This document shows, one piece after another, positions 12,253 to 32,724 of a stretch of 32,724 nt of DNA. Location: the IMG/VR virus record IMGVR_UViG_3300048503_000069. One strand, 5' to 3'. The stretch is from an uncultured virus (IMG/VR IMGVR_UViG_3300048503_000069) (taxonomy: Duplodnaviria; Heunggongvirae; Uroviricota; Caudoviricetes). The notes below the pieces were generated by a model. The model was not told the DNA's origin and searched no databases. It saw only the letters and a program-made list of their open reading frames with translations. The position numbers and the translations under genes were made by a program. Each line of letters starts with the position of its first letter. Position 1 is the first letter of the stretch.

Positions 12253-15200
12253 ATGGCAAGTCTCGGCGAATTGATGGTCATTATCACCGGCAACGCTGAT
12301 GGTTTAAAGGCCGCGTTAGCCGAAGGTAGCGAGTCGACAGAAGCGTTCGGCGGCGAAATGGACGCGGCTGGCGCTAGTGCAACTGGTTTCGCTGCGGGTA
12401 CTGGTGAAGCAGAAGCGTCGGCAACTGGTATGGCTGCCGGTATGGATGATGCGACCGCGAGTGCAGGAGAGCTAGAAGGTGGTTTAGGCGACGCTGCGGT
12501 AGCTGGTGGCGCTGCTGCTGGCGGATTAAAAGACACAGAAGCGGCAGCTACCGACGCGAAAGCGGGAATGAGCGACGCAGCTACCGAAGCTGGTGGCCTA
12601 GGTAGTGCGCTTACAAGCGCGGGTACGTTAGGTGCAGCAGGTATAGGTATCGCCACCGTTGCCGTTGCGGCGTTCGCTATTAAGTCCGGTGAAACCGTTG
12701 ATAATGCTTATTCTCAGATGGGAAAAGCAACTGGCTTACAGGGTACTCAACTTCAATCACTTGAGACGCAGTGGGGTAACGTTTATGCGAACGTTCCTGC
12801 AAGCGCGAGCACCGTAGCGACGGTTATTGATAAAGTAAATAACTCGCTTGGATTACAGGGTGACGCGTTAGGAAAAGCAACGCAAGATATTATTGATTAT
12901 AGTATTGCGACCGGAACCGACGCCACTAGCGATACCGACTCTTTTACGACCGGCTTAACAGAAGCGAATCGTGGGCTCCAAGCGATGCACGAGCCCCTTA
13001 TGACGACCGCGCAGTTATCTGATATGTCTACCGTAGCGTTTCAGAAGACCGGAAAGGGAATCCAAGATTGGGGGCCGGCGTTCGATAAAGCTACCGCGTC
13101 GATGACTGCGATGGGAATGTCTATTCCTCAGCAAGTCGCGGCTCTTTCTGCGTTCTCACAAGCTGGAATACCCGCTAGACAGTTAACTTCTTTATTACAG
13201 GGAATCGGCCCCGCCGCCGATAAAGCGGGAGAGAGTCAACAGGCGTTTTGGCAACACTTACTCGAAGATGGAAAGACGGGTGTTTATACTCAAGATGAGC
13301 TTAAGCTTCTCGGCAAGAACCAAGATAACTTCACCGCAGCGGTTAAGTCGGGGACTATCACTAATCAGGCGTATATAAGCTCTCTTCAGAATAGCGGTGG
13401 TGCGACTGAAAAAGCCGCCGAATCAAACGAGACGTTTGGCGAAGCGTTAACCGAGCTTGAAAATAAGTTAACATTAGCGTTTGCCCCGCTTGGGACTACT
13501 ATACTTACCATATTAAAGAACTTCATCGTCGCGTTAACGCCGGTAATTAGTTTTATTGGTCTTTTAGCGAAAGGCTTCGCGGCTCTACCTATGCCAATAC
13601 AAGCGGGTATGCTCGCTATAGGGCTTATAGCCGGTGGTGTCGCTGCTGCCGGACTCGCGCTTAAAATGTTTAATATTAATATTGGAGATATTATTACGAG
13701 CATCACGAAGCTAAAAGGTGCAGGTCTTAGCGATATAACTAATCAACTTAAAGAATTTGTTGGTTTAGGTGGTAGTGGTGCGGCTAAAGGCGTAGAGGCC
13801 GAAGCAGAGAGCGCCGTTGGCAGTGCAAGCTCGAAAAGACCGTGTCCGATAGACCCCGCGTGTTTTGATAAGTGTACTCAGAACGCGAAAGGCACGACGA
13901 GCGAACTAGAGAATATGCAGAATAAGGGGCAGGGCTTCGATAATCTTCTTCAAGACGCTACAGGAAAAACGTCGAATCTCGGTGATGTTATAGGTGACGC
14001 GTCTGGAGAAACGGGAGAGCTTGCCGCCGGTGCAGGTGACGTTGGCGAAGGATTAGCCGCCGCCGGTGAAGGTGGGGGGATTCTAAGCGGTATAATGGGT
14101 GCTCTTCCGGGGCCGCTCGCGGGAATTCTCGGTAGCGTAGGCGGAATAGGTGAAGGACTACTTGGTGGTGCCGGTGCGGCAGGGGGACTAACGGGTGGCT
14201 TAGGTGCTGCTGTAGCAGCGTCAGGGCCGTTAATACCAATAACCGGCGCTGTAGCTCTTGGTTTAGGTACAATGGCCGCTACGTCTGGAACGTTTAGAGG
14301 TATGCTCGGCGGTGCGGCTACTGCTGCTGGCGGCGTTATGACTCAAGTGCAGGGCATAGCTGGCGCGCTGATGAGCGGTAACTTCTCACAAGCAGGTCAA
14401 TTACTTCAACAGGGATTTCAAGGCGCGATAGACTCACTTAAGAACTTCGATTTCGGTGAGTGGGCCGCGCAGATGATTCAGTCGATTAAAGAATCCGTTG
14501 GTAATATCGGCGGAATGATTCTTAACGGGCTTTCTAGCTTATCTAACATAGCCGATACGATAATGAACTGGCTAAACGGCATTGATTGGAACAGCGTCGT
14601 AGATGGTCTTGTAAAAGCAATCACCGGCTTATTCGGCGGTGGTGGCGGTGGCGGTGGCAAGTCTGCTACGACTTCAGTAAGTACCGGAATGAATAAATCA
14701 CTCGTAGACGGCGCGACACAAGCAGCGCCTACGGTTTTAATGAAACTCGTGGGGGCGTTGGGGGGTCTCGCTGTTGCGTTATTATCGATATTCCCGAAGA
14801 TAGCGATGGCACTTGGTCAGGCGATTCTTAATTATTTAGTAACGCTCGATTGGGGAAGCATCGCGAATCAGCTATGGAGTGCGATACAGGGGGCTTTAGG
14901 AACGTTAGGCACGTGGGTGTGGGGTTTGCTCGTGCAGGTTCCGGGTCTTCTATGGCAGGGATTCACTTCAGCTCTAGGAACGTTAGGCACGTGGTTATGG
15001 GGACTGCTTACACCGATTCCGGGCGAATTATGGAACGCTTTCGTTAGCGCTATTGGAACGTTTGGAACATGGTTATGGGGTCTACTTTCACCGATTCCGG
15101 GTGAGTTATGGAATTCGGTAACGACACAGAACTGGGGACAGATAGGGCAAAACATTCTAACAGGCGTTGTAAGTATCGGTGGTAGCGTTTTAAGCGCCAT

Positions 15201-15729
15201 TACGGGTCAAGATTGGGGGCAGATAGGGCAGAATATCCTAAACGGCATCACGAGTTTAGGTGGACAGATGGGAAGCGCAATATCTGGTGCCGTAACGAGC
15301 GCGCTTTCGGGCGCGAATATCACGTTTACTATCCCGATTATTAATAAAACAGTCTCGTTTAACTTAGCCGAGGGTGCGTATATCGCAGCCCGTTCGGGCG
15401 GCGTTTTAGCGGTTATCGGTGAAGGTGGCGAAGATGAATACGTTATTCCCGCTTCGAAGATGGGCGACCCGACGGCTATATCGGGTCTACCGAGATTAGC
15501 AGGCGGAGCGCTAGTCACTGGGAGCGTTGGTAACACGAACGTTTCAAACGTTATGAGATTAAGCGCGGCTACACCGAGCACGAGCGCACAACAGAGCGGT
15601 GGCGATATGCACATTCATTTCGATGGCCCAATTCATACGGTATCTGTGCAAGAAGCGCGACAGTATGCGAAAATTGTCGGCAATGAATTCGATAGCTATC
15701 GACGTCGGAAAGGGCAGATGAGAGGTTAA
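12253..15729 (+). CDS. Tail tape measure protein
   Basis: N-terminal LGELMVIITGNADGLKAAL; minor-tail-type region (KATGLQGTQLQSL); Trp repeats; C-terminal LAEG...AVIGEGGEDEYVIP; follows the chaperones. Confidence 0.93.
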   Translation: MASLGELMVIITGNADGLKAALAEGSESTEAFGGEMDAAGASATGFAAGTGEAEASATGMAAGMDDATASAGELEGGLGDAAVAGGAAAGGLKDTEAAATDAKAGMSDAATEAGGLGSALTSAGTLGAAGIGIATVAVAAFAIKSGETVDNAYSQMGKATGLQGTQLQSLETQWGNVYANVPASASTVATVIDKVNNSLGLQGDALGKATQDIIDYSIATGTDATSDTDSFTTGLTEANRGLQAMHEPLMTTAQLSDMSTVAFQKTGKGIQDWGPAFDKATASMTAMGMSIPQQVAALSAFSQAGIPARQLTSLLQGIGPAADKAGESQQAFWQHLLEDGKTGVYTQDELKLLGKNQDNFTAAVKSGTITNQAYISSLQNSGGATEKAAESNETFGEALTELENKLTLAFAPLGTTILTILKNFIVALTPVISFIGLLAKGFAALPMPIQAGMLAIGLIAGGVAAAGLALKMFNINIGDIITSITKLKGAGLSDITNQLKEFVGLGGSGAAKGVEAEAESAVGSASSKRPCPIDPACFDKCTQNAKGTTSELENMQNKGQGFDNLLQDATGKTSNLGDVIGDASGETGELAAGAGDVGEGLAAAGEGGGILSGIMGALPGPLAGILGSVGGIGEGLLGGAGAAGGLTGGLGAAVAASGPLIPITGAVALGLGTMAATSGTFRGMLGGAATAAGGVMTQVQGIAGALMSGNFSQAGQLLQQGFQGAIDSLKNFDFGEWAAQMIQSIKESVGNIGGMILNGLSSLSNIADTIMNWLNGIDWNSVVDGLVKAITGLFGGGGGGGGKSATTSVSTGMNKSLVDGATQAAPTVLMKLVGALGGLAVALLSIFPKIAMALGQAILNYLVTLDWGSIANQLWSAIQGALGTLGTWVWGLLVQVPGLLWQGFTSALGTLGTWLWGLLTPIPGELWNAFVSAIGTFGTWLWGLLSPIPGELWNSVTTQNWGQIGQNILTGVVSIGGSVLSAITGQDWGQIGQNILNGITSLGGQMGSAISGAVTSALSGANITFTIPIINKTVSFNLAEGAYIAARSGGVLAVIGEGGEDEYVIPASKMGDPTAISGLPRLAGGALVTGSVGNTNVSNVMRLSAATPSTSAQQSGGDMHIHFDGPIHTVSVQEARQYAKIVGNEFDSYRRRKGQMRG
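14872..15290 (+). repeat. Trp-containing tape measure repeats (3 x 26 aa, then 2 x 27 aa)
   Basis: GGAACGTTAGGCACGTGG recurs at 78-nt spacing; WGQIGQNIL recurs at 81-nt spacing. Confidence 0.8.
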
Positions 15730-15730
15730 G

Positions 15731-17167
15731 ATGGGAAGCTCGCAGAAACTAACTTTCGCCGGTCAAGACATCACGCAAGCACCGTATAATGCAGTTATGA
15801 CGATGCAAGCGAAGTATTGGTGGTTAGACGGCTTCACGTCGACACAGTATCCGACAAGCGCCACTTCTTTAGTGAATTCTAAGACCTATCTAAAGGATTG
15901 GGTTATCACGATTTATCTAAGAATCATCTCTCCTGATATGACTCGCGCGACGATGCAATCAAGTTATAATGCGCTTGCACAGCTTTTTAATCCGCTAAAT
16001 GGTGACCAGCAGCTTATCTTCGATGAGTTTCCTCTATCGTATTTCATAGCGAAAGGTCAGAAGTTCGCTATAACGAAAGAGGATTCTGCGAAGCATATCA
16101 TAGAACTCGAAGTCGATTTTGCCTGCACCGGCCCACCGCGTAGCTTAAGCGAAACGGTCGTGTCGAAAAACATAGCAACCTCACCACAGAGTCTACCGAT
16201 TTTTTCATTAGGCGACGTGCAAAGTTCTCCACGGTATCGCTTCACGGCCGCGCAGGCATACACCGGAAACGTTACAATTAGTAATTCCGTCACGAATGAG
16301 CAAGTCATATGGAATGGTGCGCTTGCAGCAAACGACGTCCTAGATTTTATTATGGACGTTGACTACGGAACGCCTTATACAGTTTTACATAACGGCAATC
16401 TTTCTATTTCAACAATACAGGGGCCAGCGTGGCCTCATATACCACCTAACGATTCTAGAGTTTCATTAATGGGGCCACATAGCGGCACGTTTGAAATTCG
16501 GTGGCGCGATAGGTGGCTAGTTGGACAACAGTCGTTAGGCTTACCGACGAATATCTTATTAAGCGCTAATTACGGCACGCCGTCTCTAGGACAAAACGTT
16601 ACGTTTAACGTTCAGTTAAATAACACAATGGGGCCAATGTCGAAACCTATCATCGTTTATCATTATACCAATGGTCTTCGCGTTGATGATTTCACTGCGA
16701 CGACCGACGTAAACGGTCAGTATAGCCAGCCTCTTGAGATGGGCTTACCCGAAGACGCCGTTTATTATGCAGGATATAGCGGCGACGATAAATATTCTCC
16801 AAGCATTAGTAGCGCGGTAACGGTAATTACTCGAGCGAATTCGAGACTTACGTTCACTGTATCGCAGACTAACGTTCACGTAAACACAAATACGGTATTC
16901 TCCGGTCAGCTACAGTGGTGGAATCCGCTTAATAACGAATGGGAAACCGTACCTGTGCCGAACGAACCAATTCAATTATATTATTATCCTAAAAGCGGTG
17001 GCGCAACCGTTGGCCCAACTACCTTCTTCACAGACGTTAGTGGTAATTTTACGTTTAACGGAAATTGGAGTAAGATTATAGATAACGTCTATTACGTGTA
17101 CTTCCCGGGCGACGGCGTATATGGCGCGGCACAAAGTCAGAACATAGAAGTTAGTACTTATGCGTAG
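15731..17167 (+). CDS. Distal tail protein (Dit) with two C-terminal Ig-like domains
   Basis: Follows the TMP; LIFDEFP..YF.A, GDVQSSP, ITISN, P.IPPN.....IRWRDRW. Then two GQNVTF...TTDVNG...YYA.Y.GD..Y type Ig repeats. Confidence 0.8.
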   Translation: MGSSQKLTFAGQDITQAPYNAVMTMQAKYWWLDGFTSTQYPTSATSLVNSKTYLKDWVITIYLRIISPDMTRATMQSSYNALAQLFNPLNGDQQLIFDEFPLSYFIAKGQKFAITKEDSAKHIIELEVDFACTGPPRSLSETVVSKNIATSPQSLPIFSLGDVQSSPRYRFTAAQAYTGNVTISNSVTNEQVIWNGALAANDVLDFIMDVDYGTPYTVLHNGNLSISTIQGPAWPHIPPNDSRVSLMGPHSGTFEIRWRDRWLVGQQSLGLPTNILLSANYGTPSLGQNVTFNVQLNNTMGPMSKPIIVYHYTNGLRVDDFTATTDVNGQYSQPLEMGLPEDAVYYAGYSGDDKYSPSISSAVTVITRANSRLTFTVSQTNVHVNTNTVFSGQLQWWNPLNNEWETVPVPNEPIQLYYYPKSGGATVGPTTFFTDVSGNFTFNGNWSKIIDNVYYVYFPGDGVYGAAQSQNIEVSTYA

Positions 17168-17734: not shown

Positions 17735-17735
17735 A

Positions 17736-18182: not shown

Positions 18183-18194
18183 GGAGAAAAGAAA

Positions 18195-18551: not shown

Positions 18552-18556
18552 AAAAG

Positions 18557-19102
18557 ATGGCAAGTCATATGTGGTCTAACGGAATAAATTACCTAACGGC
18601 CGGTCTATCGACAGGGGCAACTATTACACCTGCCGATATGGTTTCGTGGACGCAACCATATACAGGGGTTTCTGCTACCGCGACGGCACCGTATAACGCG
18701 TGGTCTGGTTACCTTCGTTGTTCGCTTAACTCGGGCATGGGAACCTACACCTCGAGCACGTTCGAAAACACACAAACAGAAATCACCGGAACAAGTTACA
18801 TCTCACTTGGTGCAGATATTACCGGCGCGGGCCACAATCAGACAAGCGTCTCGGTTAATAGCTCGCATATCGACTACGTAGCGAGTCAATCAGATACGTC
18901 ACCAGAATGGCTAACGATGACGACAAATTCTCCGTATCCACAGTACGGCTCGATATTCGCGTCTACAGGGACTCGAAGCTCAAGTCCGGTTCTTTGTGTG
19001 TTCGACTTCGGTACTACGTATCAATGCACGGCTGGTACTTTTAGTATCACATTCGGCACAGACTCGGTTGCTCACACCGTATTCGCAATAACTGTATCGT
19101 AG
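18557..19102 (+). CDS. Small beta-rich virion structural protein
   Basis: TEITGTSY..LG, PEW..., VLCVFDFGTTYQCTAGTFSITF resemble a widespread phage family (EVSGTGYTAGG...DFG...T.GTFTI); RBS GAGGT. Confidence 0.65.
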   Translation: MASHMWSNGINYLTAGLSTGATITPADMVSWTQPYTGVSATATAPYNAWSGYLRCSLNSGMGTYTSSTFENTQTEITGTSYISLGADITGAGHNQTSVSVNSSHIDYVASQSDTSPEWLTMTTNSPYPQYGSIFASTGTRSSSPVLCVFDFGTTYQCTAGTFSITFGTDSVAHTVFAITVS

Positions 19103-19104
19103 AT

Positions 19105-19144
19105 GAGGCGGGTTAATGCTCGTCTCGACCCTTTATTCTAAGGG
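19105..19144 (+). terminator. Tandem intergenic hairpins
   Basis: GAGGCGGG/CTCGTCTC (19105-19126, two G-U pairs) and CCCTT/AAGGG (19129-19144). Confidence 0.45.
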
Positions 19145-19174
19145 ACGTTCTATTCTAGCGGAGCTTATCATTAA

Positions 19175-19483
19175 ATGACACTTTACTCGAAAGTCGGCAC
19201 ATTTACGACGCCAACGAGTACCGGCAATCAGACGGTTAGCGGCATAGGCTTTACGCCAGTTGCGGTTATTATATGGGGAATTGCAGACGACGGCAATGGG
19301 TGGGTTAGTGACTCACAATTCGGTATGGGGTTTTCTGCATATAACTCGGCAAAAAGCGCATTTCAACAGGGTGCGACCTCAACGGCGGGGGCCAGTGGTG
19401 TAACTACTCGACAAACCCTTTTTCTTTTAACTAGCGGAGGTTATTTAGGACAGAGGCCTCAATTAGCGGAGCGTATATGGTAG
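19175..19483 (+). CDS. Short, possibly truncated tail-fibre-type beta domain
   Basis: VGTFTTPTSTGNQTVSGIGFTPVAVIIW is a typical fibre-domain start. The last ~25 aa lose this character and overlap the next ORF. Confidence 0.55.
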   Translation: MTLYSKVGTFTTPTSTGNQTVSGIGFTPVAVIIWGIADDGNGWVSDSQFGMGFSAYNSAKSAFQQGATSTAGASGVTTRQTLFLLTSGGYLGQRPQLAERIW

Positions 19484-21942: not shown

Positions 21943-21943
21943 T

Positions 21944-24900
21944 ATGTTACCGCTTATTTATTACGTTCCTCAGAATAGCTCAACGTGGACGAATCTCGGC
22001 TCAGCAGGAACCGCGTATAACGGAAGCGTTAGTGTAAATAGATATAACGCACCAGACTCGACGCACGGCGCGCCGTTTTGGGGCCGAACTGATACGAACG
22101 ATTATATTTGTTATAAAGGTACTGATATTGATAATCTAAATACAATCGGTTTCGAAATCGGTTTCGAATATGCTGCCTATAACGGAACCGGCCTCGCAAA
22201 ACTTTGGGATAAAGGCGTTGGCACGTTTTTCCTACAGATTAACGAAAACACACATAAACTACTTCTCTATCGAACAACTAATCTTTCCGGCGGCGGTCAG
22301 GGTGAGGTCTATTGGACCGCAACAACAACGTCACTCACATCAGGTAATGAGTATTATATCCAAGTTGGCTGGACGTGCGGCACGCCAGCGAGTCCGGGTA
22401 CTCCGCACATATACATAAGCGCTAACGGCGGAACACCAGCATTACAGAGCCTAACATATTCGGGCGCGTCGAGTGGAACGTGGGCGAGCGACGCAGGCCT
22501 ACCTGCAAATGTCTTTAACTATAGCTCAAGTTCTAATTGTCCGAGCAGTTCCGGCAGCTATGGTTTAACAGGATATCTATACGTATTTCGACAGTACAAC
22601 ACCGACATATCGAGTTATATCACTAGCGCGAGTAATGGTTCATGGTACATAGATAAGCGTCGAATGTATTCGTGGATTACAAACTATGGTAGTGGACTTA
22701 ATACTTTCTTCGGCTATGAGACGATTAGCGGCAACTCGGCTTTCCCTAAAAGCGGCACGGCTATTGGAAACGTCGACCAACTTGCGGGATTTACCGGCCA
22801 TTCTCATTACGATGGTTCATTATGTTATGCGCCACTAGGCACGAGTTACGCGCAGTGGGTATGGCAGAATAATAACGATTATATCTACACAAACGGCGCG
22901 TATTCGCTTACGGCCCCGGCAATTAACGATGTAGCCGTTTTTTCGTCAGAGATTGCCTTTTATTATGACGGTAATTGGGGTTCCGCGACGTATCCGCGAA
23001 TATTTTCGAAAATGGATTCTAGCTCAGGAGAGTTCACACTATATCTCGATGCGTCCGGCGGCGCTGACACTGGTAACCTTATTCTTCAGCGAGAGTGTAC
23101 CGACGGTAGCATTGACACGTGGATGACTACCACGACAAAGTTAACGGCGGGTAACTGGTATGAAGTACAAGTCTTGTGGGTGTGTGGGTGTGGCCCTAGC
23201 TCGCCCCCGTACAGCGCACCAGTTATTCACATTAACACCGTCACTCAATACGTCGCTCATAATCAAATCGGCGGGGCGGATTGGGTTTTCGACGGAGCGG
23301 GTAATTTAGTAATTGGTAACCGCGACGGTTCGCTCGGGCTTGGCGAATGTATGCAGGGAAGCCTCGTTATCTTTAGATGGTATCCTTATAATGCGTCGAG
23401 TCTTTTCGCGTCGGATTACGCGAGCGATAGCCAGCAGTGGCCGCTAACCGCAAGTTCGATTTCGATTAGCGCACCGGCTTCGGCTATACAGAGTCAGAAC
23501 TTTACGATTAGCGGCACGCTTTCTTATGCGTCCGGCGGAATCTCCGGTGCGACTATCTCACTCTTAAACGCGGATACTATGGGTGTTATTACTACTACCA
23601 CCACAGACGGTAGTGGCAACTATTCGTTTAGTATTAGTTCATCGACATTAGGCTCTAGCGACTTTAAAACCTCTTTTGCCGGTAATTCTACGTATTCTAG
23701 TTCAATAAGTGCGGAAGTAACCGTTACTATATCATCCGGCATCATTTACGACGTCGACGGTGCGATTGTAACTAACTGTCAAGTAGAGTTTATAGGCTCG
23801 TCTTTTCCATCATCCGGCACAACGATAACAAACGTCGGACAAGCTTCGGGTGAGAACGGAACTGCATATCAAAATGATTATACGTTAGTAGCTGCCGGAG
23901 ACGCGGGATGGGTGTTCCCGAATAATCCATCTGATATGATAACCGTACCTGCTAATGCGGTCTTAGATGATATGCAGGCGGTGACGTATGAATTTCTTGT
24001 TTATTATGCGGGTGGTAGTGGAAATTTATATTCTAAAGGGGACGCCTCAAATCTAAATTACCCCTTAATGTCTATACAGTTTAATTCCACAAGTAACTGC
24101 CTACAAGTTAATAAAGTCGCTTCTACTGGCACGCGTTGGAATACGTGGTTTACAACTACTACACCAGTAACGGCCGGTAACTGGTATTTTATTCAGATAA
24201 CGTGGAACGTCGGCACAACTGAAGGAACTGCAAATCCGATTTGTTATATTAATAATGTTAATCAAACGATTTCTCAGGCGCTAACGAACACTGGAAGTTG
24301 GACTACCGATGCAGGGGGTATCATATGTATCGGGAATGAGTACCCCGCTGCAAATCCGAGTCAGTTCTACGGGACTCTAGTAGTAGCTAGAATTCATAAC
24401 GTTATCCTTACCTCCGGTGCAGGTAGTCAGCTAGAAGGTAATTATAACGCGAGTAAATGGCGCGCACCTACAATTAAAAACGCATATGTAAACGTTGATG
24501 TGCCGGGTGCCGCTGCTGCACTAATCACACTAAGCAAAATACGAACCGACGCGAAGCTTAACGTTTCATCTATCGTTTCTAATGCGACAGCAGTTAGTTC
24601 CGTTGTTTCTCGCGCAGACGCGAAAATTAACGTTGCCACTATTACGAGTACGGCCGCACCTGTAACGTGTATTCCGGGACTCGGGCATTCTATTACCGTA
24701 GACGTACCGGGCGCGGTAGCTGCACCCATCACGCCATCCGCGTTTACTACCGGCATTACCTCGCCGGAAACCGACTCACTCGCCGCGTCTACAGAAGCGG
24801 GAAGTTTAAGTAACGTAACCGTAACCATAGCTGAAGCCGATTCCCTAGCGCCGTCTGAAAACGTTTTATCGAATACTTCAATAGCCGAAACGGATGCGCT

Positions 24901-27900
24901 CATAGCGTCAGAGACGCCGAACGTCGCGCTCGAGGCCGATGAGGTTAGTACCCTTACACCAATCGAGGCACCATCAACCGTAGCTACATTAGCCTCTACC
25001 GAAATAGACACACTTATACCAATAGAAGCGTTAACGATTGAAGAAGATATAACGATAGGAGAAACCGACGCGCTAAGCGAAGTAGAACAATCGGGAGTCG
25101 GTGGTAATTATGAGTACGTTAACGCATCAGAAGACATTATATTACTCAACCTCGAAACGCAAGCGTTAAGTGCGACCGCAGAAGCAGACGAGACGCAGGT
25201 TCTAACACCGGACGAAGAGGTTATAGATGAAGCTGATTTAACTGAAATCGATACGATTATACCCATAGAAGCGCCAGCAGGCGAGGTAGATGTCGGCGAG
25301 ACTACTTTAATATCATCAACAACTGAGACTATCGATACCGAGGCGTACTATTCGCCGGTTATACACGAAACCGTTGTACTTACGCCGATAGAAGCAACCG
25401 GCACGGATAGCGGAATCGTAGCATCGGTAATCGTTAACGAGTTTATTACACTAAAACCTCTTGAATTAACCACCCCTCAGATTCCGGTGCTTGTCGCCGA
25501 ACCGGAAATACTCGTCACTTTCGAAGAGATATTACCCGAGGTTGTTATCGATTATGCCGATAGCGATACGCTAGACATAACCGAATCTATAAGCATCGAA
25601 GCGAAGTTCTCTCCGTTACAGGGACTCGTAGAAAGTGACGCGCTTAATCCTCTAGAAACGTCAACGTTCGCGTCGACGCTTAGTATTAATGAATCTACGA
25701 AACTCGCGCCGTCTGAAACCGCGCATCTTACACTAGCAGAAGTCGAATATATAACGCATAACGAAGTGATATACCTCGACGCCGAGGACTCAACGCTTAA
25801 CGACCCCGTTGTACTAATACAGACGCCACACGGTCCCGCGACGATAGACGCGCTTGAGGTACAAATTAACACTACTGAATCTAACAAGCTTAATTCTATA
25901 GAAGTCGCAGATATTAATCCGAATGTCTATCACGCACCACCTCCGCTAGTTGATTATGTCTTAGAAGTTCGAAAGAAGGACGGTAAAAATTGGGATTTAG
26001 TAGGCGTATTAGAAAACCGCGTCGCACCAGAGTTACAATGTGAAGTAGGTGCGGCCGACCAGCTTACCTTTAACCTCCCACTTTCCGACCCAAAATCGCT
26101 TTTATTTAACGCATCTAACACGCGTGGATTAGAGGTATGGTATTACGGTAGAGACTCGAAGCTTAAACAAGTTTTTACGATTACCGGCGGCGGTAAGACA
26201 GAAGGCTATCGAGACTACGGCGGAAACCCAGGTGGAAGCGGTAGCACGCTCGGAACCGGCTCGGGAGATTGGCTCTACGTTACCGCGATTGGGCCTGAGG
26301 CATATCTAACAATGTATTATGTCGCAGACTACACCGCAACGCAAAAGTATGTTTCTTCGATATTAAACGCTATTTGTGGAGAAATAATAGATGATGGATA
26401 TATAACCGCCATTCTCGTTGACCCTGCTCTTAATAAACTAATTGATATTGACTTATCGTGGGAAAACCTACAGAGTGCGTTAGGTAACATCATTCAACAA
26501 ACCGGCGGCTATATGCGCGTCTTAGTAAACTCGAATAACCCGTCGAGTCGAGTACTATATCTCTCAAGTGAAGTCGCTTCAGACATATTCCCGATTAATC
26601 TCGGCGGCGTGACGGCTGATTCGGTGGGCGTTTGCTCGTGGGGGCCAAATAGATTAGACTTATTCGCGCGAGGCGAAAACTCGAGTATCTATCATAAATA
26701 TTGGAACGGTACTTCGTGGTCTGGTTGGGCTACTCTTGGCGGAACCACTGATAGCGCGCCTACCGCGTGCTCGTGGGGGCCGAATAGAATAGACGTTTTC
26801 GTTCGCGGAACTGATAATATATTATATCAAAAATATTGGAACGGTGCGTGGTCTACATGGATACCACTCGGTGGCACGCTCACCTCTGCACCAGCCGCAG
26901 CTTCGTGGGGGCTAAATCGCATCGATGTAGTTGCTCGCGGAACGAACAATCAACTATACCACATATACTGGAACGGTATAAATTGGTCAACGTGGGGTAC
27001 TCTAGGCGGCGACTGCACGAGCGACCCGGCTATAGTATCGTGGGGTGAAAACAGACTAGACGTCTTCGTGCGCGGCACCACTATGGAGTTGTATCATACG
27101 CGATGGGACGGTTCAACGTGGTCGACGTGGGAAAACCTCGGCGGTTATCTAACCACCGGCCCGGGCGCTGCGTCGTGGGGGGAGAATAGAATAGACGTTT
27201 TCGCTGGCGGAGAGGATAACGAGCTAGAATGGCAATATTGGGGTGGCGACGTTGGTACTCCAATTCACCAGCAGGGAATCGCGTTCGACGGGACGTATTA
27301 TTATTATACAACGGATTCTACGATTTATAAGCTCGACGCAAGTTATAACGTCATTGCGTCTAACGCAAACGCGGCCACGCAGTGTGGTGGTGACCACCTC
27401 GGCGGTTTAGGCATACATAGCGGAACTATATACCAATTCTGCACAACGGATGAGACGCCGCAAGTTATGATGGTTGGATTATTTAATACGAGCGATTTAA
27501 GCTTTATAAGAAATGTCGATTTAACGAAAGTCGCCGGGAATCCGCCGACGTGGAGTACTTATAACATCGGCGGCGTGGGTGTAGACGCTGCGAATAACGA
27601 ACTTGTAGCGATTCACTTCGGTGACGCCGGTAGTCTGTCAGTCGTGGCCCCAAAGGTGTTTAAATTCAACTTGAGCACGTTTGCGTACTTAGGTTACATT
27701 ACTGGAACGGGCGACTTAGGAATCTATTATCAAGGCATCTGCCCGTATGATGGGGTTTATTATTACACCGTCGATAATTCGTCAAACGCCAACTCACCTA
27801 CGCATCTACTCGGCGGCGTGTATATGATGAACCCTGACGGAACGGGCCAGACGATGATAATACCTGCGTCTGTTTTCAATAATGCGGTATCCGATTTAGC

Positions 27901-29116
27901 GTGGAGTGGTGAGATAGAATCACTCAGCGTGACGGACGCGGGTATTGTTGTGCTTTGTGGTGGCTATATCTTTACCTTCTCTCTTGAACCGCCATATACA
28001 TTACAAAGCGTCACACCGGGACTACAAGAATTAACGCCTGTGTGGTCTGGATGGGAGTCTTTAGGTGGTTACGTTCAATCATCACCGGCCGCTTGTAGTT
28101 GGGGATATGGAAGAATCGACGTGTTTCTCGAGGGGCCGGATGGTGCAGTCTATCAAATGATATACCAAGAAGACGTGTGGCAGCTAAAGAAAAAGAATAG
28201 CCTAACTAAACACGGACGCGTAGACTGTCCTAAATGCCCGAAGGCCGTGAGAAAAGAAGCAGCCGAGCGTAAAGAAGCAGCCGGAGACGTAGAACCGCAA
28301 AACGTATGGTCTAATTGGAACGCGCTCGACGTAGACCAGATTCAGCCACCGGTCCCGATTATAAAATACGATGTATTCCCGAGTATGGGTGACGTGATAA
28401 ATAACGACTTAGGCGATAGCGCATACGACGGAGTTGCGTTTAATAACGGTTTCACACAACTTCAATGCGGCGTTGGTGCGTGGGTGTTTAACGCGCCGCA
28501 AGACGTCACGTGGACGAATAACATTCAAATTACGAGTGGGCCGGATATTACGGGATTAGCAGATATGACCCTTAGTATGTGCGTATATATCGACGCGAAT
28601 CAAACGGCGGTAAATAACCCGAGGCTATTCTCGAAACAACAGGAGAACGGCGCGTTTGAGCTAATCTACGACACGTTTAACCAAGCACTCATACTTAGAC
28701 GATACACAACAAATAACGATTATGACGAGTGGAGAAGCGCACAGAACTCAGTTCCGATAGGCGATTGGTATTATATTCAGTTAATATGGCAAAGTAGCGT
28801 TAGCCCGGAAACAGAGAGTCCGCCGGTTATTATCGTTGATAACGAGCAGTTAACACTTGTTAATACAGAAGCCGGAACGGGATGGTGGTCGCCCGACTAC
28901 TCCAACAATCTCTATATCGGTAATAGCTACTTATTAGATGGCAGCGGTGATTTCGTTGGCATAATGAGCTTCTTTAGCCTATATGGCGCGGCTATAGTAG
29001 ACCCAACAGACGACTTTAACACTAACGCGTGGCGGCGAGACCCCGCCGACGTAGACGCGCAGCTTGTTTATAATTTCTTCCCACAAATAGTAACTTCCGA
29101 GGTGGCAAGTCAGTGA
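21944..29116 (+). CDS. Giant mosaic tail protein: LamG-like x3, Ig-like, repeat stalks, N-half of Tal/hub, lectin propeller, inserted propeller, LamG-like
   Basis: GNWY.IQ.TW/L.IGN LamG-like motifs; repeat blocks; DYVLEV...QLTFNLP...ALGNIIQQTGGY hub-like segment; SWGPNRIDVFVRG repeats. Confidence 0.8.
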   Translation: MLPLIYYVPQNSSTWTNLGSAGTAYNGSVSVNRYNAPDSTHGAPFWGRTDTNDYICYKGTDIDNLNTIGFEIGFEYAAYNGTGLAKLWDKGVGTFFLQINENTHKLLLYRTTNLSGGGQGEVYWTATTTSLTSGNEYYIQVGWTCGTPASPGTPHIYISANGGTPALQSLTYSGASSGTWASDAGLPANVFNYSSSSNCPSSSGSYGLTGYLYVFRQYNTDISSYITSASNGSWYIDKRRMYSWITNYGSGLNTFFGYETISGNSAFPKSGTAIGNVDQLAGFTGHSHYDGSLCYAPLGTSYAQWVWQNNNDYIYTNGAYSLTAPAINDVAVFSSEIAFYYDGNWGSATYPRIFSKMDSSSGEFTLYLDASGGADTGNLILQRECTDGSIDTWMTTTTKLTAGNWYEVQVLWVCGCGPSSPPYSAPVIHINTVTQYVAHNQIGGADWVFDGAGNLVIGNRDGSLGLGECMQGSLVIFRWYPYNASSLFASDYASDSQQWPLTASSISISAPASAIQSQNFTISGTLSYASGGISGATISLLNADTMGVITTTTTDGSGNYSFSISSSTLGSSDFKTSFAGNSTYSSSISAEVTVTISSGIIYDVDGAIVTNCQVEFIGSSFPSSGTTITNVGQASGENGTAYQNDYTLVAAGDAGWVFPNNPSDMITVPANAVLDDMQAVTYEFLVYYAGGSGNLYSKGDASNLNYPLMSIQFNSTSNCLQVNKVASTGTRWNTWFTTTTPVTAGNWYFIQITWNVGTTEGTANPICYINNVNQTISQALTNTGSWTTDAGGIICIGNEYPAANPSQFYGTLVVARIHNVILTSGAGSQLEGNYNASKWRAPTIKNAYVNVDVPGAAAALITLSKIRTDAKLNVSSIVSNATAVSSVVSRADAKINVATITSTAAPVTCIPGLGHSITVDVPGAVAAPITPSAFTTGITSPETDSLAASTEAGSLSNVTVTIAEADSLAPSENVLSNTSIAETDALIASETPNVALEADEVSTLTPIEAPSTVATLASTEIDTLIPIEALTIEEDITIGETDALSEVEQSGVGGNYEYVNASEDIILLNLETQALSATAEADETQVLTPDEEVIDEADLTEIDTIIPIEAPAGEVDVGETTLISSTTETIDTEAYYSPVIHETVVLTPIEATGTDSGIVASVIVNEFITLKPLELTTPQIPVLVAEPEILVTFEEILPEVVIDYADSDTLDITESISIEAKFSPLQGLVESDALNPLETSTFASTLSINESTKLAPSETAHLTLAEVEYITHNEVIYLDAEDSTLNDPVVLIQTPHGPATIDALEVQINTTESNKLNSIEVADINPNVYHAPPPLVDYVLEVRKKDGKNWDLVGVLENRVAPELQCEVGAADQLTFNLPLSDPKSLLFNASNTRGLEVWYYGRDSKLKQVFTITGGGKTEGYRDYGGNPGGSGSTLGTGSGDWLYVTAIGPEAYLTMYYVADYTATQKYVSSILNAICGEIIDDGYITAILVDPALNKLIDIDLSWENLQSALGNIIQQTGGYMRVLVNSNNPSSRVLYLSSEVASDIFPINLGGVTADSVGVCSWGPNRLDLFARGENSSIYHKYWNGTSWSGWATLGGTTDSAPTACSWGPNRIDVFVRGTDNILYQKYWNGAWSTWIPLGGTLTSAPAAASWGLNRIDVVARGTNNQLYHIYWNGINWSTWGTLGGDCTSDPAIVSWGENRLDVFVRGTTMELYHTRWDGSTWSTWENLGGYLTTGPGAASWGENRIDVFAGGEDNELEWQYWGGDVGTPIHQQGIAFDGTYYYYTTDSTIYKLDASYNVIASNANAATQCGGDHLGGLGIHSGTIYQFCTTDETPQVMMVGLFNTSDLSFIRNVDLTKVAGNPPTWSTYNIGGVGVDAANNELVAIHFGDAGSLSVVAPKVFKFNLSTFAYLGYITGTGDLGIYYQGICPYDGVYYYTVDNSSNANSPTHLLGGVYMMNPDGTGQTMIIPASVFNNAVSDLAWSGEIESLSVTDAGIVVLCGGYIFTFSLEPPYTLQSVTPGLQELTPVWSGWESLGGYVQSSPAACSWGYGRIDVFLEGPDGAVYQMIYQEDVWQLKKKNSLTKHGRVDCPKCPKAVRKEAAERKEAAGDVEPQNVWSNWNALDVDQIQPPVPIIKYDVFPSMGDVINNDLGDSAYDGVAFNNGFTQLQCGVGAWVFNAPQDVTWTNNIQITSGPDITGLADMTLSMCVYIDANQTAVNNPRLFSKQQENGAFELIYDTFNQALILRRYTTNNDYDEWRSAQNSVPIGDWYYIQLIWQSSVSPETESPPVIIVDNEQLTLVNTEAGTGWWSPDYSNNLYIGNSYLLDGSGDFVGIMSFFSLYGAAIVDPTDDFNTNAWRRDPADVDAQLVYNFFPQIVTSEVASQ
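24765..25920 (+). repeat. Type-B acidic repeats, ~18 x 17-24 aa (E-x-D/x-x-L-x-P-x-E)
   Basis: ETDSLAASTE, EADSLAPSE, EVSTLTPIE, EIDTLIPIE, ETVVLTPIE, ESDALNPLE. Preceded by ~4 type-A repeats (24476-24750). Confidence 0.8.
26597..28170 (+). repeat. PLL/DUF346-type lectin beta-propeller blades (5 contiguous + 1 displaced)
   Basis: LGG...S.P.A.SWG.NR(L/I)DVF.RG.D..LY..YWNG..WS.W repeated at ~46-47 aa; the sixth blade follows an insertion of ~260 aa. Confidence 0.85.
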
Positions 29117-31629
29117 GTATAGTAACCGTAGAATCCGATGAGATTGCAGTTTTATTACCGTATGAACAGATTCCTTTTTCGAGTATAGAAGCGGACGAAG
29201 TGTCTACGCTACTACTCGATGAGGTAACGCTTCCCGAATCGTGGTATCTAGAAGAAGCAGGAGTAAGCGTCGTTAGCACGCTTGTTCCGAACTTCGGTGC
29301 CGCTGGAACGGACTATCACGCTTATGGCGCGCAAAATGACTTTATAACGCTTCCGAGCGGCGCGACAGCGTGGCAGCTTAGCGGCAATATGGATTATATA
29401 GCGATTCCTCGCGGCGTTAGTATTGATAACGTAACGCAAACGACCTTCGAATGGTTGTTCATCCTTAATGATTATAGTGGTAACCACGCCGGTAGATTAT
29501 GGTCAAAACGTCAGACTCACGACGGAAGTTTTGATGTTTACGTAGACGATATAAACGGCTGTATCGTAATTCAACGAGGCACGATTCTAAACGAGCTAGA
29601 CGTGTGGCAGACGCCAAATAACGTAATAGACGTAGGTCAGTGGTGCAACCTTCAGATAACGTGGAACTGTGATATTTCGGCCGGTGGCGACGCGCCGATA
29701 ATTATAATAAACGATACACCTCAAGAACTTCTTCACACGAACGTTGCGAATCCTGCTCTATGGGCGGATGATAGTAACGACGACGCGTTTATTGGAAATG
29801 TTATAGGTGGCGGCTATAATCTAAATGCGACAATAGCGGTATTTAGACATTTTACGACCATAAAAACCCCGTCGAAGCTTACTACGGACTATCTCGCCGA
29901 CGTGTGGCGCACGAGTAATAAACAATTAGGCCCGATTACCGTCTCATCGGGACCAAGTAACGACACCGACCCGATACTCACTATTGAAAAGAATCTTAGT
30001 AACATCTACGCACAGACTGATTTCTCGACGGTCGTCACGCAATGCGAGCCGCGAGGCATAGGACAAAAGCCAGCAGAGCTTCGATTTAATAATCCTAATT
30101 ATTATCCTAATGCACAAGCGTTACAGCTCTATACAACCGACACGAGTTGGGCGTATTTTAGACTTCAAAGTCCTTATGTTTATGCTAACGCTACATATTC
30201 TGGACAGCCGTTGCCTAGCACTATGCTCGTAGGAACCGGATTAACTGATTTCTGCAATATTTCGCCTACATTACAAGCCGATAGTACATACCCCGACCCT
30301 AACATGGGAGAGTCACCGCCAGCACCTTATGACGGTCAGCCGATTGGACGTGATGACTTTGCTGGACACGGACTCGTTTTTAAACTAAACGCTAATACGC
30401 GTTTCACCGACGCTAGTTTTTTCTTATATAAAAAACCGGCAGCGACGGCCGGTCAAAAAGCGCATCAGTTTCTAGTAGGAATTTATTATATACAAAACAC
30501 CCCCGACGCGGCCCTAAATGAATACGTTCCATCTCAGGGGCCGTTAGTTTGGTATATCGGTGACCTCGACCAGATTCAGCCGGATACGTGGGCGTGGTAC
30601 ACATTCCCCTTACAACAAGCAGCGATAAGTCATACACCGTGGGATTGGTACGCTCTAGTGATTTCAGTGTATCCGACGACCGGCGCGAATTGGGAAGGCG
30701 ACATTCTTTGGGTCGGTTTTAAGATGACGAATGTAGAACCGACACAAAATACCCCGTATCAGTTTATGTGGACGTTCGCAGGTAATCCCGCGTACTCTGC
30801 CGGAAGTAATGTTAAGAATTGGGCAAGCGCAGCAATGGCCGCGAAAGCACCGGGTGCTATGTCGCGCCCTGCTTGCGTTCTTCATTCAATAACAACAGAT
30901 TTAACGAGCGAGTTTCAACAGAGTCTAAACGCGTGTCCGGGCTGGCAGCTTAAAATGCCGATAGCAAAATACTCGCCGACTTCGCAATATTGGGCGCATT
31001 ACCAACAAGCGCCGTGGCTTATCGATTGGGAGGCGTATTCGACAATGGGTAAAGTAGAAGGAACCTATAAATCAGACACGCTTTCCTCACACGACGCGCT
31101 CTTTAATGCCGGTGCAAATTATCTATCAACGGTGTCTAACCCGACTTATACAATTTCGCTAAGTGCATTAGACTTATACGATTTAGACCCACAGAAGAAT
31201 TGGGCGGAAGAGCTTCGTCTCGGAACGACGGTTATGGTACTCGACGCCGAGCTTAATATTCAAGAACAATGTCTCGTAACGAAAATTACTAAAGATAACC
31301 TCGAGCAGCCTCACGACATACAGATAGAATTAAACAGTTTATACGCGACTGCGGCGAGGTCGATGGCGAACATAAATCAATCGAGTATTACCTATCCAAA
31401 GTATCTAAGCGGCCAAACGGTCTCTGCACCGTATATAATGAGTGGTGCTTGCACTGATACGACCCCGGCATCACTCTACTTTGAGATAAAAGAAGGGAGT
31501 ACGCTTGTTCCGTCGGTTACGATAAGCATAAACCCGACACCATATCAGGTGGCGACGAGCACCGGCGTTACCTCTGATACAAGTACCTCTACCGCGTTTA
31601 AAATGAAAATAGACGGTGTAGTGGTGTAG
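29113..31629 (+). CDS. Tail protein: LamG-like plus C-half of Tal/hub (prophage tail endopeptidase-like) plus start of spike C-domain
   Basis: GTG overlapping TGA, RBS GAGGTG; IEKNLSNI...D.STVVT...PRG; L...G..YL...SNP..T...SALDL...LRLG..V.V.D.ELNI......VTKI. Confidence 0.8.
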   Translation: MSIVTVESDEIAVLLPYEQIPFSSIEADEVSTLLLDEVTLPESWYLEEAGVSVVSTLVPNFGAAGTDYHAYGAQNDFITLPSGATAWQLSGNMDYIAIPRGVSIDNVTQTTFEWLFILNDYSGNHAGRLWSKRQTHDGSFDVYVDDINGCIVIQRGTILNELDVWQTPNNVIDVGQWCNLQITWNCDISAGGDAPIIIINDTPQELLHTNVANPALWADDSNDDAFIGNVIGGGYNLNATIAVFRHFTTIKTPSKLTTDYLADVWRTSNKQLGPITVSSGPSNDTDPILTIEKNLSNIYAQTDFSTVVTQCEPRGIGQKPAELRFNNPNYYPNAQALQLYTTDTSWAYFRLQSPYVYANATYSGQPLPSTMLVGTGLTDFCNISPTLQADSTYPDPNMGESPPAPYDGQPIGRDDFAGHGLVFKLNANTRFTDASFFLYKKPAATAGQKAHQFLVGIYYIQNTPDAALNEYVPSQGPLVWYIGDLDQIQPDTWAWYTFPLQQAAISHTPWDWYALVISVYPTTGANWEGDILWVGFKMTNVEPTQNTPYQFMWTFAGNPAYSAGSNVKNWASAAMAAKAPGAMSRPACVLHSITTDLTSEFQQSLNACPGWQLKMPIAKYSPTSQYWAHYQQAPWLIDWEAYSTMGKVEGTYKSDTLSSHDALFNAGANYLSTVSNPTYTISLSALDLYDLDPQKNWAEELRLGTTVMVLDAELNIQEQCLVTKITKDNLEQPHDIQIELNSLYATAARSMANINQSSITYPKYLSGQTVSAPYIMSGACTDTTPASLYFEIKEGSTLVPSVTISINPTPYQVATSTGVTSDTSTSTAFKMKIDGVVV

Positions 31630-31633
31630 AACG

Positions 31634-32641
31634 ATGACAACATACGCAGCGTATCAATTATGTGCAGAATCATTCTCAAACTATGCTCAACTTAAAAGTC
31701 AGGGATTTATTGACCTCGTTCTAATTGAAAATATAAATAGTAGTTGTAACGCGTGTCCGGTTCCGCAGGGCTTTATAAACGGATGTACTGCGCAGGGAAT
31801 GGGTTCGCTCTTAAATAACGGTAATGACGCTGGCGGAGGTGGGGGTGGCGCGAATCAGTCATACTATGCCGGACTAAAAAAGCAGGGATTAAGTGGGGCC
31901 GGTGGTGAGTCTGAAAGTCTAGATGAAGTTAACGCCATTTTAGCAAACACAGATAGTACGTTTGTCTTTATGAACTATGGTGGACAGGGAACCGGCGGCC
32001 CAACAGGTAATAATAACATATGGGCTTCGCAGGGTGGTCACTGCTCGTATAGTGGTGGTGCAACGATAGGCTCAGGACAAAAAGTCTCTTCGTTTATAGA
32101 ACCTTACGCACCGGGACTAATGTCGACTGAAGAGGTAGAAACCGAAGCCGGGTACAATAAAGACGCTGGTTGTTTTGAGGTTGGGATTTTAATAGTAGAT
32201 TGGTTCCCCGGTGCTAATTATGCGGGATATGCAGACGCGGTAATATCCTCAGGAGCTACCTTCGGGGGTTTTCAGTTCTGGTATGTAGAAGGAGACAGCG
32301 CGAGCGGAAGTAATAATTGGGGACCCGGAAGTAGCGATATAAATAATATGATGAAACAGTTTCCGCCGAATACTAAAAACATAGTGCAGCGCGCCGGTGG
32401 GTCGTCACCCGGTGGCGGCGGAGGTGGGGGGTCGGGGCCCGGTAGTAATATTCCGGCAATCACAGGCGGTAATACGTTCGGCGGTAATAGTGAGGTTGAT
32501 ATTTTACCATATCTAACGCAAAATCATCAGGGTCAGCCAACGCCGGGTGTACACTACGTAGAGCTTAGTTCGGCAGATGGAATACGCGCACAAGTAACCG
32601 CTTCAGTACGCGTACGAACTTGGCAGCCAAAGGAGATGTAG
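31634..32641 (+). CDS. Putative TIM-barrel/glycoside hydrolase-like domain, Gly linker, and end of spike C-domain
   Basis: Alternating beta/alpha pattern ending GGFQFWY; GGGGGGGSGPG linker; EVDILPYL...G.H.VEL....IRA.V C-terminus. Confidence 0.55.
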   Translation: MTTYAAYQLCAESFSNYAQLKSQGFIDLVLIENINSSCNACPVPQGFINGCTAQGMGSLLNNGNDAGGGGGGANQSYYAGLKKQGLSGAGGESESLDEVNAILANTDSTFVFMNYGGQGTGGPTGNNNIWASQGGHCSYSGGATIGSGQKVSSFIEPYAPGLMSTEEVETEAGYNKDAGCFEVGILIVDWFPGANYAGYADAVISSGATFGGFQFWYVEGDSASGSNNWGPGSSDINNMMKQFPPNTKNIVQRAGGSSPGGGGGGGSGPGSNIPAITGGNTFGGNSEVDILPYLTQNHQGQPTPGVHYVELSSADGIRAQVTASVRVRTWQPKEM

Positions 32642-32649
32642 ATTAGATA

Positions 32650-32724
32650 ATGTCGCAATATATCTACTACAAGTTTGATAAAAGTTCGACTACAATCACA
32701 GTACTCTGCGTTGATACCACTGCT
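32650..32724 (+). CDS. Start of next gene (3' truncated)
   Basis: ATG 8 nt after the previous stop; frame open to the window end (MSQYIYYKFDKSS...). Confidence 0.45.
   Translation, partial: MSQYIYYKFDKSSTTITVLCVDTTA

Follow-up and report, generated by a model that had tools for sequence, protein, structure and literature searches.

The baseplate hub of an uncultured siphophage from peat soil is divided over consecutive genes, and the same pieces lie contiguously on one chain in its relatives. The sequence analyzed (IMG/VR record IMGVR_UViG_3300048503_000069; 32,724 nucleotides, hereafter the window) is the tail module of this phage. Its long open reading frames (ORFs) all lie on the plus strand, as do the features located below by window coordinates. 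Gene 1 (P0001, 2390 amino acids (aa); 21944..29116, from ORF and translation) contains the N-terminal half of the hub (N-half) and gene 2 (P0002, 838 aa; 29113..31629) the C-terminal half (C-half). Gene 2 stops just ahead of strands that continue the same chain in relatives and that are encoded here in gene 3 (P0003, 335 aa; 31634..32641). An earlier note, made from the letters of the window alone, had described this division and stated that the segments form one chain in related tail proteins. Both points are borne out: the N-half has a hub fold, gene 2 matches PF06605, and the segments map collinearly by BLASTP onto single hub chains (P0018, P0023), with all of them contiguous in P0022, P0023, P0041, P0045 and L011. 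The stretches quoted in the note were recovered by translation, namely DYVLEV..RVLYL (P0001 1336-1540), ILTIEKNLSNI (nucleotide 29974), the gene 2 end ..FKMKIDGVVV with its stop codon, and SNIPAITGG..EVDILPYL..VHYVEL behind the poly-Gly of gene 3. We regard it as probable that the window encodes a tail-tip module whose baseplate hub (Tal/BHP, gp27-like) comprises several polypeptides in place of a single chain.

The N-half (P0001 1335-1538; 25946..26557) was identified with AlphaFold2 (AF2), Foldseek, VIA-align and BLASTP. An exhaustive phmmer search over 1.84 billion representatives returned 12 relatives of this piece at 43-55% identity, and an 11-sequence alignment (A4) was used for modeling. 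The AF2 model has a predicted local distance difference test score (pLDDT) of 80.8 and a predicted template modeling score (pTM) of 0.75. Foldseek found 39 PDB matches to it at E ≤ 1e-3, with baseplate hub proteins leading. By VIA-align, the model superimposes on 80alpha Tal (6v8i_AE; Z 12.4, root-mean-square deviation 2.8, 177 residues aligned), NF5 Tal (Z 12.2), Mu gp44 (Z 10.6), T4 gp27 (Z 9.2) and residues 5-190 of VgrG1 (Z 9.1, 180 residues aligned); the top 30 rows consist entirely of chains from hubs, VgrG or spike complexes. Secretin N0 domains are matched as well, by the second subdomain (model residues about 124-214). As modeled, the gene 1 piece folds alone as two complete domains, TT1 and the secretin-N0-like Ins1, which are HDI and HDII in the T5 hub-domain nomenclature (HDI-HDIV) given in a passage of PMC10038345. 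At the sequence level, the corresponding region (window 25901-26623) has no Pfam match at E ≤ 10 and no NCBIfam match at E ≤ 0.01. Neither the single sequence nor the 11-sequence profile matched PDB sequences significantly; hits to a beta-lactamase (E 0.64) and a fusion protein (E 1.8) were taken as noise.

The C-half (P0002 270-835; 29920..31617) corresponds to the second tube domain with its insertions (HDIV/HDIII), as assigned by PF06605, TIGR01665 and BLASTP. Residues 255-754 of P0002 match positions 62-250 of the 250-position PF06605 Prophage_tail profile with 54.4 bits against a cut-off of 31.3 (E 1.9e-14), and the protein also matches positions 221-305 of TIGR01665. Gene 2 alone matches PF06605; the family is absent from the other 10 tail-region proteins scanned, which hold no other hub candidate. 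Searches of PDB sequences with P0002 and profile A1 gave nothing significant (best, a scaffoldin at E 0.14), and a single record among 50,697 phage records was found by tblastn with P0002 (26% identity, 19% of the query covered).

These family models also locate the first break in the hub. PF24650 (TT1_Tal) spans residues 1-89 of 80alpha Tal, and PF06605 positions 8-224 span its residues 97-314. The C-half of relatives begins at PF06605 position 93-96 (residue 278 of P0018, residue 11 of P0034, and likewise in P0022 and P0023) and at position 167 of 316 in TIGR01665, so the break falls mid-way in both models. On 80alpha Tal it maps to about residue 183, between Ins1 and TT2, which is a boundary between domains. 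The split-domain reading offered in the earlier note does not apply here, given that the gene 1 piece is predicted to fold as two complete domains and the break precedes TT2. The first break is a subunit-level split between domains, of the kind seen in lambda gpL/gpJ, across which TT1 and TT2 still have to pair.

Single-chain relatives, found through the exhaustive phmmer search and at related loci, carry the pieces on one polypeptide. Residues 2-210 of the 802-aa protein P0018 correspond to P0001 1335-1538 (51% identity, E 5e-49) and residues 258-797 to P0002 270-835 (37%, E 7e-96). In the 2893-aa protein P0023, the order is P0001 1342-1573 (P0023 983-1211, E 1e-37), P0002 217-835 (2244-2854, E 8e-81) and P0003 289-312 (2866-2889, 71% over 24 aa, E 1.7e-7). 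P0022, the 3168-aa P0041 (from NCBI) and P0045 (from Logan) map collinearly in the same manner. There are thus two kinds of fused hub. The N-half, the C-half and the strand segment termed (a) below share one chain in P0022, P0023, P0041, P0045 and L011, the last a DNA-checked, all-in-one giant closely related to P0022 and cut by its contig end with 2854 aa visible. The N-half and C-half are fused in one compact chain in P0018, the exact sequence of which is present on 10 contigs from three sources, and in L014, a DNA-checked hub of 797 aa with 41% identity to P0018 over its whole length. A word-index search for longer proteins with the P0003 tail found none among the 324 candidates scored. A MAFFT alignment of N-half-only and C-half-only rows with P0018 (A3) was discarded because the first ~215 C-half residues were misaligned.

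Between the two halves lies a large lectin-type insertion of DUF346 repeats and LamG-like domains, which is found within a single chain in P0022 and P0023. Gene 1 comprises an N-terminal array of ConA/LamG-like and Ig-like domains, an acidic repeat stalk (residues 831-1331; 17% D+E, 3% aromatic), the N-half, DUF346 lectin-like propellers (PF03984, E 1.7e-16) and a C-terminal LamG-like domain, the region 2137-2380 being 43.5% identical to the PF13385-bearing end of P0010. In gene 2, a pair of acidic stalk-type repeats and a LamG-like domain precede the C-half, and an apparently truncated beta-sandwich forms the C-terminus. The LamG-like domains that end gene 1 and open gene 2 are adjacent in P0022 (1419-1653 and 1655-1815), which places the break of the window in a linker within the insertion. 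A third insertion site is seen inside the first hairpin of the tube domain of P0022 (about 673-1206) and P0023 (about 693-990), where a DUF346-type propeller of several hundred residues parts the ..PYTLEVRQ.. strand from the rest of TT1 (..YIGVLDGRIAP..). The two acidic repeats that open gene 2, ESDEIAVLLPYE and EADEVSTLLLDE (window 29113-29247, P0002 1-45), repeat the stalk motif of gene 1 (window 24930-25260, P0001 997-1110), with EADEVSTL identical in both. The gene pair of L003 likewise shares an acidic repeat motif. Judged by these motifs, the shared repeats might zip the two hub halves together.

The gene boundaries are conserved among relatives. Gene 2 begins with a GTG codon that overlaps the gene 1 stop (GTGA), with GAGGTGG as ribosome-binding site (RBS) 7 nucleotides upstream; the earlier note had likewise given the gene an RBS and start of its own. 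Its start and end are kept in relatives at 71%, 54% and 39% identity. At 54% identity, L002 has the same architecture (2413 aa + 862 aa) with the identical 4-nucleotide GTGA overlap. At 39%, L003 has a gene 1 of 824 aa (stalk, N-half, one LamG-like domain), a TAA stop, a 9-nucleotide spacer and a gene 2 with its own GGAG. In L005 and in L006/L007 (97% mutually identical), the N-half is a small gene ending in ..AVLPQ and a stop codon, and the C-half gene of L007 begins MSVQPPIMTIGKNL.. without a LamG domain; the fused L014 and P0018 continue from ..(V/I)(L/I)PQ directly into a basic linker. The comparison of gene boundaries that had been suggested in the note finds the same breaks in L002, L003, L005 and L006/L007. 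The breaks are no errors: they are gene boundaries that relatives share, and a separate start codon follows each of them.

The two breakpoints vary independently of one another, with each of the four possible fused/split combinations represented. Both breaks are split in the window, L002 and L003, only the first in L007, only the second in L014 and P0018, and neither in L011, P0022 and P0023. A tree of 15 N-halves (excluding the fragments P0027 and P0028, as well as P0041, P0045, L011 and L014) is unrooted, with an arbitrary root and 6 of 12 inner branches unresolved, and the order of fission and fusion is not readable from it.

The second break appears to lie within a domain. The putative C-terminal beta-sandwich of gene 2 (about residues 763-838; 31399..31626; alignments A2 and A5) ends with ..FKMKIDGVVV, just ahead of strands found on the same chain elsewhere: P0022, P0023, P0034 (from L007) and L011 continue 11-14 residues later with ..DILPY(L/V)..NHxGxPTPGxH(Y)I.., which we term segment (a). 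In the window, this segment lies in gene 3, which starts 4 nucleotides past the TAG of gene 2 and encodes a passenger domain, a poly-Gly linker, segment (a) and a second segment (b). Segment (a) (P0003 281-312, TFGGNSEVDILPYLTQNHQGQPTPGVHYVELS; 32474..32569) was defined by BLASTP and a motif census, with matches to the C-termini of P0022 (E 1e-5) and P0041 (E 5.6e-7). Segment (b) (P0003 320-335, ..ASVRVRTWQPKEM; 32591..32638) is a C-terminus shared among passengers, with the motif ..ASVRVRxWQPKxM before the stop codon. The motif TF.G...VDI is common to P0034 and the passenger tails, so homology reaches right to the break. To judge from these sequences, the second break would fit strand donation.

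A fourth gene encodes a further passenger of the same design. Gene 4 (P0014, 331 aa) has its first 25 codons in the window (32650..32724, the window end) and is complete in the independently stored contig L001 (L001:14227-15222); it consists of a LamG-like domain, a Gly linker and segments (a)+(b). The last 248 nucleotides of genes 3 and 4 are 82.7% identical (window 32395-32639 versus L001:14979-15220), whereas their N-terminal domains are unrelated. Gene conversion could account for this tail identity, as could a recombination handle used in swapping passenger cassettes.

Across six lineages with DNA context, segment (a) is encoded at least once in each, and its location on hub and passengers is complementary. 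Where the hub lacks (a), a downstream passenger carries it (4/4 lineages): P0003 and P0014, both (a)+(b), in the window lineage; P0015 with (a) only, beside P0016 and P0017 with (b), in L002; P0012 with (a)+(b) in L003, where the contig ends; and one (a)-like + (b)-like passenger beside two with (b)-like ends only in L014. Where the hub itself has (a), none of the five passengers does: P0035, P0036 and P0037 of L006/L007 have (b) only, and the two of L011 have (b)-like ends only. Segment (b) stands at the extreme C-terminus of 13 of the 14 passengers in these lineages, a count in which the (b)-like ends of L011 and L014, missed by the regular expression, were recognized by eye from the C-termini.

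Three passenger types recur, joined to their tails by Gly or Thr-Pro linkers. The first is the P0003-like domain, also found in L002, L007 and L014, which has no family match (no Pfam or NCBIfam match for P0003). A hydrolase-like label for P0003 is unproven; the ESM Atlas gave only sub-threshold TIM-barrel/GH18-like leads (score 0.88, TM 0.54). The second type is LamG-like (P0014, P0012, P0016, P0037) and by BLAST weakly resembles the LamG-like N-termini of P0001. The third is a papain-like C1 peptidase (P0017, PF00112, E 9e-11; P0036), of which the window has no copy. The P0036 gene (L007:13322-15316) is interrupted by an intein (PF14890 Intein_splicing, E 4.6e-16), which in turn contains an HNH_3 endonuclease; an intein is unusual for a phage tail accessory enzyme. 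The earlier note had pictured the lectin, LamG and hydrolase-like domains and the fiber stalk as separate plug-in polypeptides. This would describe genes 3 and 4, while the LamG domains, lectin propellers and stalk of genes 1 and 2 are covalent parts of those proteins. Its three-gene account placed the pieces correctly and missed segment (b), the fourth gene and the mobility of (a) between hub and passengers.

On this evidence, we infer the physical assembly, geometry and stoichiometry of the module as follows. Gene 1 would supply TT1 and Ins1 (HDI+HDII) embedded in a huge adhesin, and gene 2 the second tube domain (HDIV/HDIII, the PF06605 part) with an incomplete C-terminal beta-sandwich. The two products may co-assemble as a hetero-hexamer with three copies each, in which TT1 and TT2 would form a quasi-sixfold ring docking on Dit, as in lambda gpL/gpJ and the hub/megatron of the Rhodobacter capsulatus gene transfer agent (RcGTA). 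The products of genes 3 and 4 would be passengers, a candidate hydrolase-like domain and a LamG-like lectin, each tethered by its Gly linker to two C-terminal strand segments. Of these, (a) would be the missing end of the hub sandwich and (b) a shared passenger tag. Both may insert into or extend the gene 2 sandwich, in which case the tail tip would display interchangeable enzymes and lectins. The two (a)+(b) passengers of the window would then compete for, presumably, three sockets.

Several results weigh against this reading. The N-half is not recognized by any sequence profile, including PF24650, PF06605 and TIGR01665. The sole model of a contiguous C-terminal sandwich, the AF2 model of P0023 2701-2893, is poor, with a mean pLDDT of 56, and its best structural matches (Z 6.0) are at background level according to the note of the tool. 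A simple rule of a single (a) and a single (b) for each hub subunit is at odds with some loci: two (a)+(b) passengers are encoded in the window, and L014 has one with (a)+(b) and two with (b) only. In addition, five small ORFs and P0004 separate Dit from gene 1, unlike the usual Dit-Tal adjacency. As a weak hint, the P0023 model has one sandwich (residues 84-193) that includes (a), and the (a) strand is among its best-predicted parts (pLDDT 76-78). Its structure matches are to jelly-roll sugar-binding domains and carbohydrate-binding modules (CBMs), with an aligned range that reaches residue 193 in most of the 50 listed.

Two other explanations concern the breaks themselves. The breaks could reflect artefact or decay, either as assembly or sequencing frameshifts or as a degenerating prophage that splits one giant Tal gene, and it is true that each of genes 1, 2 and 3 has a frame of its own, that hardly any spacer separates them and that single-chain versions exist in relatives. 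We consider this hardly credible, as independent contigs at 39-67% identity share these boundaries (L002 (=L008), L003, L005, L006/L007), every downstream ORF has its own start codon and Shine-Dalgarno motif, and the window is identical (100%, 18424-32700) to L001. The repeats at the N-terminus of gene 2 and the whole passenger domain of gene 3 are likewise not expected of a frameshifted continuation. Alternatively, programmed recoding by -1 frameshifting or stop read-through could join gene 1 to gene 2, perhaps also to gene 3, with a covalent single-chain hub as part of the product. Relative to gene 1, gene 2 is read in the -1 frame, which is open from nucleotide 29074, 40 nucleotides before the gene 1 stop; the genes of L003 share a frame and are parted only by the TAA and three codons; and fused hubs are viable in relatives. 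Recoding is nonetheless very unlikely, because no X XXY YYZ slippery heptamer was seen by eye in the 40-nucleotide overlap of the window and because the junction geometry differs between relatives (a 4-nucleotide overlap in the window, L002 and L007; a 9-nucleotide spacer and TAA in L003). A canonical RBS and start codon also precede gene 2, and gene 3 would need another shift.

A third explanation accepts that the hub halves assemble and concerns the tails only: (a)/(b) could be an autonomous anchor or oligomerization tag that binds Dit, P0004 or other copies of itself, with its fusion to hubs being ordinary domain shuffling. The passengers of the window carry (a) and (b) together and could fold them as a self-contained hairpin, no hub with a fused (b) was found, and the sandwich model is of low confidence. 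The passengers of L014, one with (a)+(b) and two with (b) only, are also unexplained by a one-socket, one-strand model. Against such a tag, (a) follows only 11-14 residues past the ..VDG strand of the hub in fused forms, and homology extends up to the break, with TF.G...VDI kept in P0034 and passenger tails. Segment (a) is also present in 6/6 loci and never on a passenger where the hub already has it. The pLDDT of 76-78 for the (a) strand and the alignment of most listed sandwich matches up to residue 193 point the same way. We consider an autonomous tag unlikely.

For the hub divided over several polypeptides, a more specific proposal can be made about its C-terminal end. The jelly-roll may be a deliberately unfinished socket, to which strands (a) and then (b) are donated by interchangeable passengers (a hydrolase-like domain, a papain-like peptidase, a LamG-like lectin) while the break has slid between the arrangements hub / a / b, hub-a / b and hub / a+b. 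We put this forward tentatively, as a serious possibility short of a probable one. If true, it would be the phage counterpart of donor-strand complementation in pili, and a tail of about 16-55 residues could be all that a new enzyme has to acquire for a place on the tail tip. The tails of genes 3 and 4 are 83% identical in nucleotides, and this identity would then mark a recombination handle.

The surrounding genes have the layout of a siphophage structural module. An HK97-type capsid protein (3981-5225, PF05065) is accompanied by head- and tail-completion proteins. The tape measure protein (TMP; 1158 aa, 12253..15729) matches PHROG 991 (E 1e-19) and PHROG 167 (E 2e-15), and also PF10145 under its cut-off (E 1e-5). 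A Dit-like protein with an Ig-like extension follows (478 aa, 15731..17167; weak, sub-threshold PF22768 SPP1_Dit and PF05709) and is 47% identical to part of the 1508-aa protein after TMP in L007. The hub is encoded downstream of both, in the order TMP, Dit-like, six ORFs and gene 1; in L007, TMP, the evolved Dit, the N-half gene and the C-half gene are directly adjacent. The six ORFs are five small ones in window 17357-19483, one with DUF2769 (E 2.4e-6), and P0004 (821 aa, 19477-21942, from the ORF list and translation). The last of the small ORFs (19175-19483) shares 53% identity with the evolved Dit of L007 at its N-terminus, and thus pieces of the Dit region seem to be fused and split differently between relatives too. 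P0004 begins with a propeller, and its matches to two lectin families, CV39L and BP39L, are weak and far sub-threshold. Repeats of the form ..ARADA.IPTLTPISS.AA.., about a dozen of them, come after the propeller, and the protein is BLAST-similar to the DUF346 regions of P0022 and P0023. Near the start of the window, an HNH endonuclease (PF01844, E 4e-15; 1250-1684) overlaps a downstream 748-aa ORF (1681-3927), which precedes the capsid gene, has no Pfam match and may be a portal or terminase missed by profiles.

The independently stored contig L001 is an 80-kb IMG/VR record, 100% identical to window 18424-32700. A 15.2-kb stretch of the L002 phage is 100% identical to L008 (JBEKNL010000005.1, a 95-kb contig), which was binned in a metagenome-assembled genome of Candidatus Korobacteraceae (Acidobacteriota). 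This is the sole host hint and could equally be a binning artefact.

The split hubs of lambda and of gene transfer agents are known only as fixed, ancient arrangements. With fused and split versions among relatives at 30-55% identity, and at two independent break points, the present family is a natural experiment on the tolerance of a multi-domain machine part to fission. It also suggests a natural plug-and-socket system by which the tail tip takes up enzymes and sugar-binding domains. Should the (a)/(b) tails act in this way, they would be a compact, transferable docking tag for enzymes and lectins on the siphophage tail tip, with a bearing on host-range evolution of soil phages and on phage-tail engineering. 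The N-half further provides a warning for annotation, being a hub piece that escapes every sequence profile tried and is hidden mid-way in a 2390-aa ORF.

The closest known counterpart is the Tal of Gram-positive siphophages (80alpha gp59; PF24650 + PF06605; TIGR01665), which the hub resembles in its N-half fold, its PF06605 C-half and its position downstream of TMP and Dit. The N-terminal domain of 80alpha Tal consists, as a passage of PMC7048315 describes it, of TT1, an Ins1 related to the secretin EscC, and TT2 with Ins2, in which TT1 and TT2 merge into one beta-sheet. The N-half has a secretin-N0-like second subdomain like the Ins1 so described. In contrast to Tal, TT1+Ins1 and TT2 are on two polypeptides in the window, each with hundreds of residues of lectin-like domains, and all four hub domains share a polypeptide only in the relatives. 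No lysin domain was detected on the hub of the window; enzyme-like domains are separate passengers.

Sharing of a gp27-like hub between consecutive proteins has precedents. In lambda, gpL holds HDI and gpJ holds HDII-HDIV according to a section of PMC10721106, and the RcGTA hub (g13) and megatron (g15) together superimpose on T4 gp27 in the accounts excerpted from PMC7296036 and PMC10038345. Assembly is non-covalent in those systems as so described. Unlike in lambda, the first break lies one domain later, after HDII/Ins1 rather than after HDI. Unlike in gpL, no conserved Fe-S Cys quartet is present: the 11-sequence alignment A4 contains no Cys that is invariant or nearly so. Unlike in both lambda and RcGTA, fused and split forms coexist among relatives (40-55% identity), and there is a second break, apparently inside the C-terminal domain. 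The insertion of sugar-binding modules in loops of the hub scaffold is shared with the 'evolved' Dit and Tal of lactococcal and streptococcal phages; a passage of PMC7533335 from 2020 called the pac group B Tals of S. thermophilus unique, their gp27 fold containing two CBMs. The insertions of the present family are much larger (about 760-1100 aa of LamG-like and propeller domains), and the gene of the window is cut within the insertion.

No description of such shared passenger tags was found in the open-access literature searched. In chaperone-usher pili, an incomplete beta-sandwich is completed by the terminal strand of another polypeptide, which is known as donor-strand complementation. By analogy, the proposed tails would follow the same logic, and they would also resemble the beta-sheet augmentation between gpI and gpJ of lambda noted in PMC10721106. 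In contrast to pili, the putative donor strands, as read from sequence, are C-terminal, are carried by unrelated enzyme and lectin passengers, and are contiguous with the acceptor in some relatives. What is new here is the position of the first break, the coexistence of fused and split hubs in fairly close relatives, a second break apparently inside the C-terminal domain, and tags shared among passengers.

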